NCBI GenBank assembly: GCA_963721805.1
Contig: CAVRJY010000001.1
Coordinates: 992,001 to 1,056,000 of the forward strand
Direction of reading: 5' to 3'
Length of the DNA stretch: 64,000 nt
From: Nitrospirota bacterium
GTDB taxonomy: Bacteria; Nitrospirota; Thermodesulfovibrionia; Thermodesulfovibrionales; JdFR-86
Shown: positions 14,948 to 64,000 of the stretch, piece after piece
Position numbering within the stretch: the stretch's first letter is position 1
Layout: the number at the start of each line of letters is the position of its first letter
Notes under the pieces: generated by a model
What the model was told of the DNA's origin: nothing
Databases searched by the model: none
Seen by the model: the letters and a program-made list of their open reading frames with translations, nothing else
Program-made: the position numbers and the translations under genes

Positions 14948-15295
14948 TGGTGGAGGCGAGGGGAATTGAACCCCTGTCCGAGAGCACTAAACCGAGGCAT
15001 ACTACATGCTTAGTCCGCCTATTTGAGTTTCGGACTCCGGTGTGCCGGTTGACGGGCCCTCCAGAGTCCTATCCCCTTGATCTTGGTCAGCGGCAAAGGG
15101 CGTGCCGCCGAAGCATTCCGCCTTGTGACGTCAGCGGGTCAGGTGCGGAAGGCCCGGCCCGTGACGCGCAACCTAATTAGGCTGCGAGTGCCAGTTCGTC
15201 GTTGGCAGTTGTGAATTTTCCACAGTATTTACGTGGTCATGGATCCACGGCATGCAGCCTGGGCTTCGCAACCCCCGTCGAAGCCGGTCGCCCCC
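14948..15295 (-). ncRNA. ssrA: tmRNA, tag peptide (A)NDELALAA at 15206-15177
   Basis: 5' GGGGGCGACCGGCTTCGAC; 3' GGTTCAATTCCCCTCGCCTCCACCA; directly downstream of smpB. Confidence 0.97.
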
Positions 15296-16069: not shown

Positions 16070-17684
16070 ATGCTTAAAAATACCCTCATAGCGCTTTTGA
16101 TGGTGCTGCTTTGCGCGCGGGCCGCGCTCGCACAGGACCCTTACGCCAGCCGGGAGTGGATCAAGGCCCTGATCTCTGCCAACGAGCCGGTGGCGGACGA
16201 GTACATCCGCTCGCGCCAGACGCTGACGAAGTTCTACGTGACAACCGATAACGAGCCGGTCTGGGTCGGGCCGCAGGGGCCGCTTCCGAGGCTCAAGGAG
16301 CTGGTCACGGAGCTTAACTCTGCGTACAGCGAGGGGCTCAGGCCGGACAATTACCACGCCTCGGTGATCTGGAGCGCTCTTAAGGCGATAGAGGCCCAGC
16401 CCACGCCAACCCCCAAGGCGCTGGCCGAGATCGAGGTGCTGGCGACGGACGCGTTTCTGACCTATGGCGCGGACCTCAAGGGCGGACGTGTCGACCCCGG
16501 CGTGATATACGAGGGCAAGTACGGGATGCGCCGCCGCGCGGACGCGACCGAGGCGTTAAGGCAGGTCGCGGCGGGCGGCGATGTCAAGCAAATACTGATC
16601 TCGCTGGAGCCGAACCAGAGCGGTTACGACCTGCTCAAGAAGGGGCTTGCGAAGTATCGCAAGATCGCCCTGAATGGCGGATGGCCGTCTATACCCGAAG
16701 GCCCGGCGCTCAGGCCCGGCATGACTGACAGGCGCGTCGCCGCGATGCAGCGTAGGCTCGTCGTGACCGGGGAGCTCGCCGAGGTGAGCCCCAAGCCTGA
16801 TTTCTACGGCCCGGAGCTGCAGGCCGCGGTGAAGGCATTCCAGCTCAGCCACGGGCTCGAGGACGACGGCGTGGCTGGCCCGGCCACGGTCAAGGAAATG
16901 AACGTCACCGCGCGCGCCCGCATCCGGCAGCTCGAATTGAACATGGAGCGCTGGCGGTGGTTCCCTCCGATCCCCGGCGGAAGGTTCATACTGGTCAATG
17001 TCTCGGACTTCCAGATGTCCGTGTTCGAGGATTTCAAGCCGGTGCTCACGATGCGCGTCGTGGTAGGGATGCCGCTTTGGGATACGCCCTCGCTGACCTC
17101 GAAGGTCACGCGCATAGTGCTGAACCCGTCGTGGTACGTGCCGAAGAACATCGTGCTCGAAGAGGTCGTCCCCGGCATGATAAAAAACCCGAATTACCTC
17201 AAGAAGAATAACCTGCTCGTCGTGACAGGGAAGGCCGATACGCAGATCGACCCGAAGACTATAAGCTGGAAGTCCGTCAGCGAGAGCAACCTGAACTTTC
17301 GCGTGATGCAGCCGCCGGGGCCGAAGAACCCTTTGGGCCAGATCAAGTTCCTGTTCGCCAATACGTACGAGGTCTATATGCACGATACGCCCTCGGGGAA
17401 GCTTTTCGACCGAAACGTGCGCACGTTCAGCCACGGCTGCATCAGGATAGAAAAGCCGATGGAGCTGCGGAGATATCTGCTCAAGGACTCGCCCGAGTGG
17501 ACCGAGGAGCGGATACAGAAGGTTATCGACGGCGGGATCGAGACGGGGATAAACCTCAAGAACCCGATCGAGGTGCATCTGTTCTACCTCACCGCGTGGG
17601 TCAGCCGAAGACGGGACGGTACAATTCAGGCGAGACTTCTATGAGAGGGATGAGCCGTTGGATGAAGCCTTGGCGGGTAGGTAA
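16070..17684 (+). CDS. YcbB/LdtD-type murein L,D-transpeptidase; C-terminus frameshifted near 17605
   Basis: PG-binding AVKAFQLSHGL..DG, NMERWRW, VYMHDTP, SHGCIR; shifted frame gives EDGTVQFRRDFYERD. Confidence 0.88.
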
Positions 17685-17699
17685 TCGGTAATGAGTGAC

Positions 17700-17871
17700 A
17701 AAGCGCACTAAATACGCGTGATACGTTGTCACGGCTCGCAGCCTCGTCCTCAATGTACGTCACAGTACACCTCCGGGCGGTCTGCTCGCCGCTCCTAGTC
17801 TGACGCGATTTATCGCGCTTTAAGTTTCCGATGCGGGATCATGCGAGCGGTCAAAGGCATGATTGTAGTGC
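17700..17871 (+). repeat. Polar hairpin element copy 1 (core 17700-17821 plus inner motif)
   Basis: AAAGCGC...GCGCTTT termini, central TGTAC-N6-GTACA; near-identical blocks at 63443-63647 and inverted at 19745-19946. Confidence 0.9.
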
Positions 17872-17944
17872 CCCGCCGCTGCCTCCGCGCCTCGTGGAAA
17901 AGGATTATATGGGTGCTATGCATCTGCGTAAGACTATTGCGTTT

Positions 17945-19255
17945 CTATGAGGATAAAGAGAAAAGAAAATCAATCATATTAAAATGATGTTTATTTATTG
18001 CAATAAGTTGTTCACCATGATGTGTGCCTATGGCTCTCCTGGTTTCAAGTGTAAACTCATGAAGTGCATGATATTTATCATTGCTCCATATCTCACCGAA
18101 CCCCACGCAACTCAATGAAGAAATGTCTTCCTTGCCTAGCTGTCGATTATTAGCATCTGAAATGCGTGGATTCCACGTAATATCTTTATGTGCTTTTTTC
18201 ATTTCATATGCATCAGGAAAAACTTCTCTGTAAATCAACAATTGAATTATCACATCCTTAATATATGGGCCTGTTTTTGCTGGTGTCGCGAGATAAATTA
18301 GATACCGCAAGACTATCGGCTTTATCTTTCTTGGGTTGGATATACCAAGAGTGAGGAAGTATTTTGCGAACCCTTCGATCTGCACCTTGTTATGAGTATA
18401 CCAATCTTCCTCTGAATACCTTTTGGCGATCTCAATGATAAATTCCATGTTTGCTTCATCGCAGACCGGGACATCAAATGACAGGTTGACAATCTTCCTT
18501 AAATACTCGCTTCCGCTTATAAGGTTTGTGCCATACCTTGCCTCAATTCCTTTCTCTAATACAAGCCTATCAACCCCGATAATGAAGATGCATCTATTGC
18601 CTTTTATTGAAATGAAATGCTTAATGTTCTCTATGAGCTTCACTACATTCTCAGGGAGGCACCTATCTAGGTCATCAATAAAAACAACAAGCGCTTTTTT
18701 CTTCCCTGCAATTTTTTCTACAACACTTGAAAAATCATGTTTTAGTTTTTCAATTTCACTTATCCATTTTTCATAATAATCAGACACATCTTTTTCGTAT
18801 TTGGTATAGTTTTCTTGAATATCTTTTAGATTCAACAGCCCAGCAGTTGAATGTTTCAGTAGGGCATCGCCACCTGCCAATAATACCCCTGTAGCAACCT
18901 TCCTCAATGAATCGAGGCTCTTATTTTGTTTCTTGCCAGTTGTTTTTGCCAGCCGGGATAAAAGAGGCAATAACAACGAAGCCTCATTTTCATATTCCCA
19001 TGCGTCAAACCAAAAAGTTTCAAATGATGCAGAGTTGTTCATTTGAGCTTGCAACATCTTCATGAAGGACGTTTTTCCGCTTCCCCACTCGCCATAGACA
19101 CCAAGTGTAAATGGTGGGGTAACTTGTTCTATAAGCGCGCAAAGCCGGATAACAGAATCCTTATGGTTCAAAAAATCATTCTTGAATGGATCGTCACTCG
19201 CAACTTCAACAGGGTTTTCAGGATCAAGCCGTAATTTCCACTTTGAGTCACTCAT
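17945..19255 (-). CDS. KAP-family P-loop NTPase
   Basis: GVYGEWGSGKTS Walker A, VVFIDDLDRC Walker B, YLRKIV, NPRKIK; strongly AT-rich. Confidence 0.9.
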   Translation of the reverse strand: MSDSKWKLRLDPENPVEVASDDPFKNDFLNHKDSVIRLCALIEQVTPPFTLGVYGEWGSGKTSFMKMLQAQMNNSASFETFWFDAWEYENEASLLLPLLSRLAKTTGKKQNKSLDSLRKVATGVLLAGGDALLKHSTAGLLNLKDIQENYTKYEKDVSDYYEKWISEIEKLKHDFSSVVEKIAGKKKALVVFIDDLDRCLPENVVKLIENIKHFISIKGNRCIFIIGVDRLVLEKGIEARYGTNLISGSEYLRKIVNLSFDVPVCDEANMEFIIEIAKRYSEEDWYTHNKVQIEGFAKYFLTLGISNPRKIKPIVLRYLIYLATPAKTGPYIKDVIIQLLIYREVFPDAYEMKKAHKDITWNPRISDANNRQLGKEDISSLSCVGFGEIWSNDKYHALHEFTLETRRAIGTHHGEQLIAINKHHFNMIDFLFSLSS

Positions 19256-19744
19256 CAGTACACCTACTTTCTCGCCAAAGTATATTGCTGGTAGATATTT
19301 TAAGATAAAGTTCTCAGTTTGACAAGATGCCCGGATCCCATCCGTATACTAAGATGCTTCTTGCCCTCGTAAATCATTTTGGGGACTTGTTTCTGTTATC
19401 ACTAACTATAGTTAATCGAAAGTTAATAGAAAACGCACGGGGGACAATTTTCCCTATCAACTTCGGTTTATATATAAACCAAAGTTTGGCGGCCTTTGGT
19501 GTATAGTGAGTTAATGAGCATGATAGGATTATATTTGATGAGCGGGGCAGGCGGGGCAGGAGGGCTCCGCGCGTGTTCGGATAAATCGGCAAATACCTCG
19601 TTTTTTATCCGAACATCCGAACAAGGGGCGGAAAAACAAATGAGTATCTTCGCAGGGTTAGCCCCGGTTTTGACCCCAACATCCGAACGGAAAACGCAAA
19701 AACGCGCGCGCACGCGCGCGAAATGCATAACTATACGTATGACC

Positions 19745-19946
19745 GGCTCTCAAATCATGCCGTTGACCTTGGGGGGCGCGGGGGGCGGGGCCGACTGGCC
19801 CCCCTCCTTTTTCCCCACCCCCGAAAGCGCGAGAAATCGTCTTCAGACAAGGCAGGGCGAGAAGACCGCCCGATGGTGTACTTGGGCGTACATAGAGGGC
19901 GAGTCTTTGAAGCCCAACGCAGTATCAAGCGATTTGGCGCGCTTTC
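19745..19946 (-). repeat. Polar hairpin element copy 3, inverted (core 19823-19946)
   Basis: GAAAGCGCGAGAAATCG..CAGACAAGG..GACCGCCCG..GGTGTAC..GTACATAGAGG..GTATCA..GATTTGGCGCGCTTTC aligns with the reverse complement of copy 1; inner motif AAATCATGCCGTTGACC at 19752-19768. Confidence 0.85.
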
Positions 19947-19996
19947 ATACGTTAGCGCTGTTTGACAGTACCGCGTACGAATGGGAATAATGGAAC

Positions 19997-20941
19997 ATGC
20001 CACGCAGATATAATTCATTCGGTGCGAAGATGAAGTCCCTCTTCGGCGGCTCCGTCTTTAAGGTCAATATCGATGCCGGCTTCACCTGCCCGAATAGAGA
20101 CGGCACCAAAGGCTACACCGGCTGCATCTACTGCAACAACGACAGTTTCAGCCCCGGCGCTTGCTCGCCGAAGCTCTCGATCGCAGAGCAGGTGCAAAAC
20201 GGGATGGCCTATCTCGGACGGCGCTACGGGGCCACGAGGTTCATCGCGTACTTCCAGCCGTACACGAACACGTACGCGCCTGTGGACGAGCTTGAGCGGC
20301 TGTACCGCGAGGCGCTGGCGGTGCCCTCGGTCGTCGGCATCGCGATAGGCACGAGGCCGGACGCGGTCGACCCTGAGAAGCTCGAGATGATCGCGTCGCT
20401 GAAGCAAGAGGGCCGCTTCGTGCTCGTGGAATACGGGCTTCAGTCGGTCTATGAGAAATCACTTAGGTACATGAACCGGGGCCACGGGCTCGCGGAGTTT
20501 CAGGCAGCGGTGGACGCGACCGTGAGCCGGGGGATCGAGGCCGGGGCGCACCTGATAGTCGGGTTCCCGACCGAGACGCGGGCCGAGATGCTCGATATGG
20601 CAGAGGTGATATCGGCTACCGGGATCGGGTTTTTGAAGGTGCATCAGCTGCAGATAGTGCGCGGCACGCCGCTTGCGGACATATACGCCGAGAGCCCGTT
20701 TCAAGTTTTCGCGTACGAAGAATACGTTGAGTTCATCGCGGAGTTCCTCGAGAGGCTTGCGCCGGAGATCGTGATCCAGCGGCTGTTTGCTACAGCGCCG
20801 GATGATATACTGATAGCGCCGCTGTGGGGCCGCTCGCGCCACCAGATGCTCCGCGACATCGAGGCCAAGCTTGAGGCGCGCGAGACCCATCAGGGCAGGC
20901 TCTACAAGCCGCTTGGAAAAGTTACGGTAGGGGAGATATAA
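19997..20941 (+). CDS. TIGR01212/YhcC-family radical SAM protein
   Basis: GFTCPNRDG..GCIYC, YFQPYTNTYA, IGTRPD. Confidence 0.92.
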   Translation: MPRRYNSFGAKMKSLFGGSVFKVNIDAGFTCPNRDGTKGYTGCIYCNNDSFSPGACSPKLSIAEQVQNGMAYLGRRYGATRFIAYFQPYTNTYAPVDELERLYREALAVPSVVGIAIGTRPDAVDPEKLEMIASLKQEGRFVLVEYGLQSVYEKSLRYMNRGHGLAEFQAAVDATVSRGIEAGAHLIVGFPTETRAEMLDMAEVISATGIGFLKVHQLQIVRGTPLADIYAESPFQVFAYEEYVEFIAEFLERLAPEIVIQRLFATAPDDILIAPLWGRSRHQMLRDIEAKLEARETHQGRLYKPLGKVTVGEI

Positions 20942-63374: not shown

Positions 63375-63442
63375 GTGACGCTCATTATAACATAGGGGCA
63401 ACATTGCTCACCTTCACGATATCTTCAATATTCGAAAGGGTG

Positions 63443-63647
63443 GAAAGCGCGCCAAATCGCGTGATACGTTGTCACGGCTCGCATCCTCGTCCTCAATGTA
63501 CGTCACAGTACACCTCCGGGTGCCACGGGCACCTCTTAAAAAAGGAAAGGGCCAGCCAGCCCTAGTCTGACGCTGATTTCGCGCGCTTTAAGTTACTCTT
63601 GCATAATCGTGCGAGCGGTCAACGGCATTGATTTGGAGCGCGCTTTC
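63443..63647 (+). repeat. Polar hairpin element copy 2 (core 63444-63589)
   Basis: ~60-nt block near-identical to 17715-17777; CCTAGTCTGACGC and GCGAGCGGTCAA.GGCAT also shared. Confidence 0.9.
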
Positions 63648-63883: not shown

Positions 63884-64000
63884 CTTCCGCCCATAAGGAT
63901 AGGCATCATCCCTTGATGATATCAACTATTGACGATATGACAACACCTAACTTTTCGTCCTTCAAACGCCCGATGCCATAAAGGATGATATGGTTGTCAG

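Follow-up and report, generated by a model that had tools for sequence, protein, structure and literature searches.

Polar hairpin repeats facing inward around low-GC defence and toxin-antitoxin genes in a Nitrospirota genome: a possible, hitherto undescribed route by which acquired genes are docked

Integron attC sites lie in direct orientation, are gathered into one array adjoining intI/attI and carry R''/R' boxes, repetitive extragenic palindromes (REPs) attract specific insertion sequences (ISs), and elements of the IS200/IS605 type carry both of their end hairpins on the same strand rather than inverted. Small islets of defence and toxin-antitoxin (TA) genes that lack an integrase or transposase are common in genomes, and their arrival is mostly unexplained. 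Among the described systems closest to the one considered here are the plasmid dif (pdif) modules of Acinetobacter, in which accessory genes (resistance, TA and others) lie between inversely oriented recombination sites (PMC6449649, PMC13141974, PMC7399989), and mobile insertion cassettes (MICs) or other passengers bounded by miniature inverted-repeat transposable elements (MITEs), in which inverted repeats surround passenger genes without a transposase (PMC5444012, PMC4337579). Here, we describe a 64,000-nt stretch, hereafter the window, of a Nitrospirota bacterium (assembly GCA_963721805.1, contig CAVRJY010000001.1, positions 992,001 to 1,056,000 of the forward strand), in which a single gene for a KAP-family NTPase is enclosed by two inverted copies of a polar repeat that we term the arm. 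Each arm measures ~200 bp and consists of a hairpin of ~122 nt, a spacer of 27-52 nt, a 12-nt core GGTCAACGGCAT and ~9 further AT-rich, C-poor nt, so that it has a hairpin side and a core end, or tail. The KAP cassette at 17690-19950 is one of about 59 slots in which acquired genes, low in guanine plus cytosine (GC), sit between inward-facing arms, and this recurring arrangement points to an undescribed way of docking acquired genes.

The likeness of these slots to pdif modules lies in the inversely oriented borders and the lack of a dedicated transposase, the enzyme of dif modules being supplied by the host. However, dif borders are 28-bp XerC/XerD sites, whereas the borders here are ~200-bp structured arms unlike the genome's own dif, and the slots are dispersed over chromosomal contigs of up to 1.5 Mb instead of lying on plasmids. 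A canonical dif, AATGTCCGATAA-GATATA-TTATGTTAAAT, occurs once (contig C1:~1448130, minus strand) and likely marks the replication terminus on that contig; neither the hairpin apex nor the core resembles it. With MICs the slots share passenger genes between inverted repeats and the absence of a transposase, but MIC ends are the inverted repeats (IRs) of a known IS and come with target duplications, while here no resident IS shares the ends of the arms and no duplication of at least 7 bp is seen, and the arms are unrelated in descent. As an abundant intergenic hairpin repeat and a hot spot for specific ISs, the arm recalls REPs, bacterial interspersed mosaic elements (BIMEs) and REPINs; unlike REPIN/RAYT systems, it comes without a RAYT, it is a polar unit whose tail and core are not palindromic, and its association with foreign cargo is systematic. 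The parallel with integron attC is a structured imperfect palindrome (~60-140 nt) bordering small, promoter-poor, TA-rich accessory genes, together with what looks like serial accretion in one array described below, but the arms occur in inverted orientation at about 59 scattered loci, their ends read AAAGCGC...GCGCTTT, and no integrase adjoins them. Correia, ERIC and RUP MITEs are likewise hairpin repeats of 100-200 bp with hundreds of copies in small genomes, from which the present hairpin differs in having gained a polar tail, a core and an association with cargo. Finally, paired arms are reverse complements of each other, unlike the ends of IS200/IS605 elements and palindrome-associated transposable elements (PATEs), and the hairpins of the resident IS200 are unrelated to them.

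The repeat is abundant and its structure is maintained. A profile built from 163 full-length BLAST matches and run with nhmmer on the whole 2.78-Mb genome (94% complete; G000 in the coordinates below) returned 246 matches, of which 15 are tail-only fragments. The exact core occurs 87 times here, whereas the counts in 300 further genomes from the phylum range from 0 to 7 per genome. The arm consensus starts with an optional T-rich 8-mer, followed by a hairpin that reads AAAGCGCGCCAAATCG ... CTCTATGTACG-N4-AGTACACC ... CGATTTGGGCGCGCTTT and has AAAGCGC...GCGCTTT at its ends. Two kinds of spacer follow, an AT-richer 'L' kind of 27-28 nt and a G/C-rich 'R' kind of 38-52 nt, and beyond the core a consensus of ~9 nt, TRWTTRAAR, at which conservation stops. 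Both arm ends adjoin short AT-rich stretches. The hairpin is under selection and is kept by compensatory changes, because its stems covary, with two or three Watson-Crick pair types at several positions (for example CG 84 / UA 39 / GC 19), and because G-U pairs exceed A-C pairs (121 vs 49) when the strand is read from hairpin to tail. At 100 of 191 arms the outside gene points at the arm, and there the median distance between its stop codon and the hairpin base is 15 nt; since outside genes run toward the arm in 100 cases and away from it in 82, a role in the 3' untranslated region (3'-UTR) is not general, and the U-run after the hairpin is only ~3 nt long in this genome. A proposed 'Box B', a second copy of the hairpin 3' base after the core, was discarded as it holds for only 3 of 161 arms. 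In a literature text search of narrow extent, the core and apex strings appeared only in unrelated papers and no description of the repeat was found.

The orientation of the arms relative to one another and to base composition carries the main finding. Neighbouring arms were called inward-facing when their tails point toward each other, with outward-facing neighbours as the control: 57 of 74 tails-inward neighbours lie less than 3 kb apart, as against 7 of 72 tails-outward neighbours. Fifty-nine inward-facing pairs enclose 191-5991 bp, and in 54 of them the GC inside is at least 0.05 below that of the flanks. In the mean profile of 172 full-length arms, GC on the hairpin side recovers to 0.62 within the first 100 bp past the base, whereas beyond the tail it remains near 0.50 for 600 bp. 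Seen from the side of base composition, 239 segments of the genome qualify as low-GC (GC <0.50 over at least 400 bp), and inward-facing arms border 32 of these on both sides and 57 on one side, compared with 0 and 12, respectively, for outward-facing arms. Fifty of the low-GC segments measure 1.5-7 kb; arms stand at both borders of 19 and at a single border of 15, and the other 16 have none. The three islands of at least 7 kb are all armless and have integrases instead. Large low-GC islands without arms were noted at G000:C2:128-22200, C2:301796-344294 and C4:27278-32654, of which the second and third carry tyrosine and serine recombinase genes, so that classical integrase-borne islands coexist with arm-bounded islets. 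A chance origin of the pattern is excluded, because there are 246 matches, the core is enriched relative to 300 genomes, and the orientation and GC pattern recurs throughout the genome. The two arms of a pair are independent units: their identity equals that of random arms (0.769 in both cases; 41 pairs, Mann-Whitney p 0.92), and spacer types pair about as chance predicts (LR 30, RR 17, LL 7), for which reason the idea of a left/right polarity of arms was rejected.

The KAP cassette of the window illustrates this anatomy, and its features, together with those of a third arm near the window end, are as follows.

16070..17644, plus strand: L,D-transpeptidase, outside core gene (Pfam Scaffold, YkuD and PG_binding_1; GC 0.55-0.68)
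17690..17870, plus strand: arm A (nhmmer match G000:C1:1009690-1009870)
17700-17821, 17822-17848 and 17849-17860: hairpin, AT-type 'L' spacer and core GGTCAAAGGCAT of arm A, then ~9 C-poor nt
17945..19255, minus strand: KAP NTPase, the sole cargo gene, 436 aa (Pfam KAP_NTPase, E 2.3e-40; GC 0.34-0.43)
19297..19325, minus strand: promoter-like site TTGTCA-17-TAAAAT, 42 nt 5' of the KAP start codon (10 of 12 positions in a consensus scan, a pattern match only)
19396..19744, minus strand: non-coding 'module X', with ATCCGAAC(A) repeats, the palindrome GGTTTATATATAAACC and a GC hairpin followed by a T-run
19745..19950, minus strand: arm B (nhmmer match G000:C1:1011725-1011950), near the family consensus
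19757-19768, 19769-19822 and 19823-19946: core ATGCCGTTGACC, G/C-rich 'R' spacer and hairpin of arm B
19997..20941, plus strand: radical-SAM protein (YhcC-like), outside core gene (Pfam Radical_SAM and Radical_SAM_C)
63441..63635, plus strand: arm C, core at 63617-63628; opens a ~4.2-kb array running beyond the window end

The initial annotation of this window had described inverted hairpins at 17700-17821 and 19823-19946 around an AT-rich KAP gene set between ordinary core genes, and both parts of that description are borne out. The hairpin of arm A folds at -48.4 kcal/mol (plus strand, z -2.76) and that of arm B at -58.2 kcal/mol (minus-strand reading, z -5.18), the two align as an 89-nt inverted pair with 73% complementarity, and the inner motifs at 17849-17872 and 19745-19768 are 83% complementary. 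The enclosed 1854 bp have a GC of 0.41, against 0.62 in the flanks, and the Pfam matches confirm the KAP gene and both outside genes. The stop codon of the L,D-transpeptidase lies 55 nt ahead of arm A. The best PADLOC match of the KAP protein is the candidate system PDC-S20 (E 2.9e-59), with weaker matches to PifA and QatA, making this P-loop NTPase a candidate anti-phage defence gene. No transposase or integrase was found inside the cassette or beside its arms, and no flanking direct repeat of at least 7 bp, in keeping with the earlier impression that neither enzyme nor target duplication was visible. At gathering score, Rfam covariance models detected only a transfer-messenger RNA (tmRNA) gene in the window (14948-15295, minus strand; RF00023, 195.6 bits), ~2.4 kb upstream of the cassette and with no arm association, and with the E limit raised to 10 nothing relevant came up in 17500-20100. 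Between arm B and the radical-SAM start lies a strong promoter-like site, TTGACA-18-AATAAT (19962-19991, plus strand; 11 of 12 positions in the scan), which would, if used, yield an almost leaderless radical-SAM transcript.

The third hairpin copy, which the initial annotation had placed near 63443-63647, is real, and the inverted partner that it anticipated beyond position 64000 exists at G000:C1:1059626-1059833, ~4 kb past the window end. Arm C differs from the others in the window by an insertion of ~30 nt in the 3' arm of its hairpin. The array that it opens contains three TA pairs (PemK/MazF-like, MNT with HepT, and ParE with a Phd-like protein), separated by three direct copies of a 60-110-bp tail unit composed of spacer, core and TGATWTGG. 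Because these direct tail units sit between the TA pairs, the array looks like the product of serial accretion at the tail. At the opposite extreme, head-to-head dimers of 330-420 bp exist that have no cargo at all, in agreement with the earlier reading of the repeats as cassette ends, and at their centre is either a single core or two cores separated by 9 bp, in inverted or in direct orientation. Conservation that ends ~9 nt past the core, dimers with central cores, tail units that repeat in the array, and the occurrence of tail-only fragments together lead us to infer that the core end is probably the point at which cargo is joined.

A survey of 153 open reading frames (ORFs) from the 59 inward-facing pairs indicates what is carried. 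By Pfam and PADLOC the cargo consists largely of defence and TA genes, as the initial annotation had supposed from the window. Many are TA pairs (DUF4160/DUF2442, MNT/HepT, ParE/Phd, Gp49/HTH and DUF4258/DUF2283); restriction-modification is represented by MmeI, a type II endonuclease with its methylase and a methylase-Mrr fusion; and there are also Abi_C, HEPN and PLD proteins, an HD-CE/TPR giant, GNATs and many proteins without a family. PADLOC matches comprise PDC-S20 (the KAP protein of the window), PDC-S59, PDC-S32 and a TIR-like effector. At the DNA level no cargo gene is duplicated and no loaded cassette occurs twice, and only ISs and non-coding modules repeat. The most conspicuous of the latter in the window is module X, which there contains a 42-nt direct repeat (19596-19637 / 19662-19703). 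BLAST places it at 38 genomic loci, and at 35 of these an arm tail lies on the same strand no more than 283 bp away; in at least 24 pairs exactly one arm carries the module, and no pair has it at both. It carries a TTTATATATAAA palindrome besides its ATCCGAAC repeats. The idea that module X serves as a cassette promoter is unconvincing, since the nearest ORF is co-directional, with the module upstream, in only 15 of 21 cases.

Genome scans for candidate enzymes were mostly blank. Reverse transcriptase (PF00078, RVT_1), IS110-family (PF02371), DDE_Tnp_1 (PF01609) and TnpB (PF07282) models gave 0 matches each, as did the Y2 transposase model (PF04986), which was, however, silent in every control genome too. 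The Y1_Tnp model (PF01797) matched only six identical IS200 copies (143-144 aa), and a RAYT was not found. A single serine recombinase (PF00239) lies inside a large island and not beside an arm, and none of seven tyrosine recombinases (PF00589) adjoins an arm, with no IntI-specific model search made. The initial annotation had envisaged a RAYT, Y1 or recombinase gene flanked by the element; none lies beside any arm. Flanking direct repeats of at least 7 bp showed no excess over a shifted control across 134 units, duplications below 7 bp being beyond the resolution of that test. One solo arm is flanked by a 16-bp direct repeat, but long duplications are not a habit of the family, given that repeats exceeding 9 bp flank just 1 of the 134 units.

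Three multi-copy IS families are present, an rve-type (10 copies), an IS30-like (7) and an IS200 (6), whose copies are 99-100% identical. These resident ISs are secondary insertions in arms or cargo and have ends of their own, which start TGTAAAGG... in the rve-type, GGATTGTAA... in the IS30-like element and, as end hairpins, CCCCGTGGC... in IS200, all unlike the arm ends. The rve-type IS (1.2 kb, 344 aa, IR TGTAAAGG...) makes a duplication of ~7 bp, CCCGGAA (e.g. C1:81214-82245 and C2:405942-406973), and always lies beside tandem GGAACCAGTTCC palindromes, another non-coding cassette module; all ten copies are inside or adjoining arms. The IS30-like IS (1.1 kb, with a 326-aa HTH_38 protein) has hit the same nucleotide of the hairpin 3' arm (CAGACAAGGCAGGGC^GAGAAGACC) in five of its seven copies (C1:387360-388337, 649326-650303 and 759639-760616; C2:367216-368193 and 397164-398141) and, like REP-targeting ISs, is a repeat-specific IS. 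The possibility that arms are themselves ends of this IS was set aside, the sole likeness being GATTGTA after the core of arm A, where the family consensus is TRWTTRAAR, and real copies enter the hairpin arm and not the core. IS200 copies are located in AT-rich cargo.

When examining other genomes, it is evident that only part of the arm has relatives. A 206-nt BLAST query found the arm element in 0 of 40 relatives, ten of them from the same family, and a 24-nt arm pattern had 0 matches in genome, metagenome and viral contig collections. All ten family relatives encode the YhcC-like protein, with an adjoining L,D-transpeptidase in none, making the locus non-syntenic; likewise, at 80 metagenome loci (~600 kb) the L,D-transpeptidase is not beside the YhcC-like gene, and these loci contain no arm. 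The apex pattern CTNNATGTACGNNNNAGTACACC, in contrast, occurs at no fewer than 62 loci in a collection of species genomes. In Bryobacterales metagenome-assembled genomes (MAGs) it is the centre of a MITE of ~175 bp with the terminal inverted repeat (TIR) CTAGCCTGCATTTCTCACCAC, present in about 160-1000 copies per genome, up to ~1000 in a 6-Mb genome, and the variable first bases of this MITE (CTAG, CTAA, TTAG) suggest a YTAR-type target. In four such MAGs (G042-G045) the TIR 21-mer, with up to 3 mismatches, occurs 321, 1675, 1972 and 583 times. In a Verrucomicrobia MAG the apex again centres a MITE of ~175 bp, with TIR GGTAACAGATCA (39 TIR matches, about 20 copies). Patescibacteria (candidate phyla radiation, CPR) and an Eubacteriales MAG contain single hairpin copies 22-25 nt past a stop codon at the five loci examined, three of which have identified upstream genes (RNase J, ribosomal protein L5 and triosephosphate isomerase); A-run/T-run flanks resembling intrinsic terminators accompany three of the hairpins. 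The stems of these out-groups covary around an invariant apex, the sole Rfam match among 11 out-group loci is an rRNA, and none of the hairpin relatives from other phyla has the tail and core. Because apex relatives occur in Bryobacterales, Verrucomicrobia, Patescibacteria and Eubacteriales, the hairpin belongs to a wide, uncatalogued family, whose conserved part across phyla is the apex and not the termini. The polar tail, the core and the association with cargo are found in this genome only, compared with the 40 relatives by BLAST and, for the core, the 300 genomes of the phylum.

Based upon these features, we tentatively favour a reading, for which the case is close to balanced but falls somewhat short, in which the arms are polar cis-acting docking sites, each independent of the other, and an activity acting in trans joins and exchanges cargo at their core ends. 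Foreign DNA would be joined at the core end, the hairpin side always facing the resident genome, and new cassettes would be added beside old ones, leaving direct tail-unit copies as in the array of arm C. Recombination between two inverted arms would flip the cargo and could not delete it. Cargo would be exchanged rather than transposed together with its arms. Candidates for the joining activity, which would act in trans, are any one of the seven tyrosine recombinases encoded on the chromosome and ordinary homologous recombination of arms following DNA uptake. Several points weigh against this docking reading. In the genome family scans no recombinase adjoins any arm, and no protein is known to bind the arms. 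There are 68 full-length solo arms, many with normal GC on the tail side, and arms are missing from 16 of the 50 low-GC segments in the 1.5-7 kb range, so arms are neither necessary nor sufficient for foreign DNA. The core has weak internal dyad symmetry only and is therefore unlike a classical tyrosine-recombinase core site, while arms differ by about 23% on average, a divergence that would make homologous recombination between them inefficient. Lastly, no event was observed, and no empty or alternative slot state occurs in the relatives compared, the family relatives being non-syntenic at the KAP slot.

Two other explanations, each of which we regard as unlikely, must be considered alongside docking. 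An arm-cargo-arm unit could be a mobile insertion cassette, that is, a non-autonomous transposon with TIRs of ~200 bp moved whole by a trans-acting transposase now lost or unrecognised. Inverted arms, two-arm forms of 330-420 bp without cargo, passenger genes lacking a transposase, and a hairpin apex common to true TIR-bounded MITEs of Bryobacterales and a Verrucomicrobia MAG are all as such a transposon would have them, and the transposase genes of the genome include ten of the rve type, seven that are IS30-like and six of IS200. However, the ends of those three families are unrelated to arm ends and the ISs themselves are secondary insertions; the DDE_Tnp_1, TnpB, IS110 and Y2 scans are blank in a 94%-complete genome (with the Y2 model silent in controls); no target duplication of at least 7 bp is seen; and no loaded cassette occurs twice. 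Arms of a pair that are no more alike than random, with spacer types assorting randomly, likewise speak against a unit that moves whole, and the composite-MITE or transposon mechanism put forward in the initial annotation finds no support in these observations. The independence of the arms would suit the other explanation, in which MITE- or REP-like elements inserted one by one into AT-rich sites and selection kept them in a single orientation at the borders of islets, where they might, for instance, insulate or terminate transcription; the pairs would be a by-product without any role in cargo acquisition. The 68 full-length solo arms, the short AT-rich stretches at both arm ends, the median of 15 nt to the stop codon of an outside gene that points at the arm (100 of 191), and the CPR and Eubacteriales hairpins 22-25 nt past stop codons, three of them terminator-like, are compatible with it. 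Still, to arrive at 89 inward versus 12 outward border arms, such a history has to invoke very strong selection or some unexplained mechanism, and it does not account for the central cores of dimers, the direct tail units between sub-cassettes and the presence of module X at one tail in at least 24 pairs; as terminators, moreover, the arms have a U-run of ~3 nt and outside genes that run away from them nearly as often (82) as toward them (100).

The initial annotation had suggested a RAYT/HUH driver, and mobility through a single-strand HUH enzyme (RAYT or IS200/IS605-like), with a Y1 protein recognising the hairpin on one strand, or through retro-type copying of an RNA, now seems very improbable. 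The covariation of the hairpin and the excess of G-U over A-C pairs on one strand speak for such routes, as do the high copy number, reminiscent of REPs and REPINs, and the lack of a target duplication and of any sign of a classical short TIR function. Yet the PF01797 matches are restricted to the six identical IS200 copies, whose end hairpins are unrelated to arms, and the end hairpins of IS200/IS605 elements stand on the same strand while the arms are inverted; retro-mobility was rejected in view of the absence of a PF00078 match. What endures of the candidate cassette system proposed in the initial annotation is therefore its core, polar boundary elements of cargo without a visible enzyme, which the genome-wide statistics uphold, including the tendency of copies to occur as inward-facing pairs around low-GC accessory genes, whereas the RAYT/HUH and composite-MITE mechanisms are not supported.

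A bolder version of the docking reading, which we consider possible though rather doubtful, is that of a new chromosomal cassette-docking system, in which 60-90 arms, whose hairpin derives from a cross-phylum MITE family and has acquired a polar tail with a 12-nt core, act as scattered landing pads at which defence and TA cassettes are inserted, stacked and swapped by a host-encoded activity. If true, nature would have its own version of recombinase-mediated cassette exchange, operating chromosome-wide and not confined to a single integron. If exchange of cargo takes place at arms, they would also represent a third route of cassette traffic beside integrons and Xer-dependent modules, and a MITE-type repeat would have turned into genome infrastructure. 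The question of how small islets arrive is in any case made concrete, because arms of a single repeat family, in fixed orientation, border 34 of the 50 low-GC segments that measure 1.5-7 kb on at least one side. The cis element is defined (hairpin, spacer, 12-nt core and attached repeat module), and is usable as bait for the acting protein and traceable across strains.

Two loci outside the Nitrospirota genome add minor observations on the wider hairpin family. In the Bryobacterales locus L254 (G045:C13:32900-35400), an IS110/IS1111-like IS (Transposase_20, subterminal IR ATGGTTCGCTCCC) sits exactly in the 6-nt apical loop of the MITE, between GTAC half-sites. In a Kaiserbacteria MAG (L161:1955-2964), a family hairpin directly after rplE is followed by a 270-aa ORF without a Pfam family, which lies in the ribosomal-protein operon and may be an inserted cassette.

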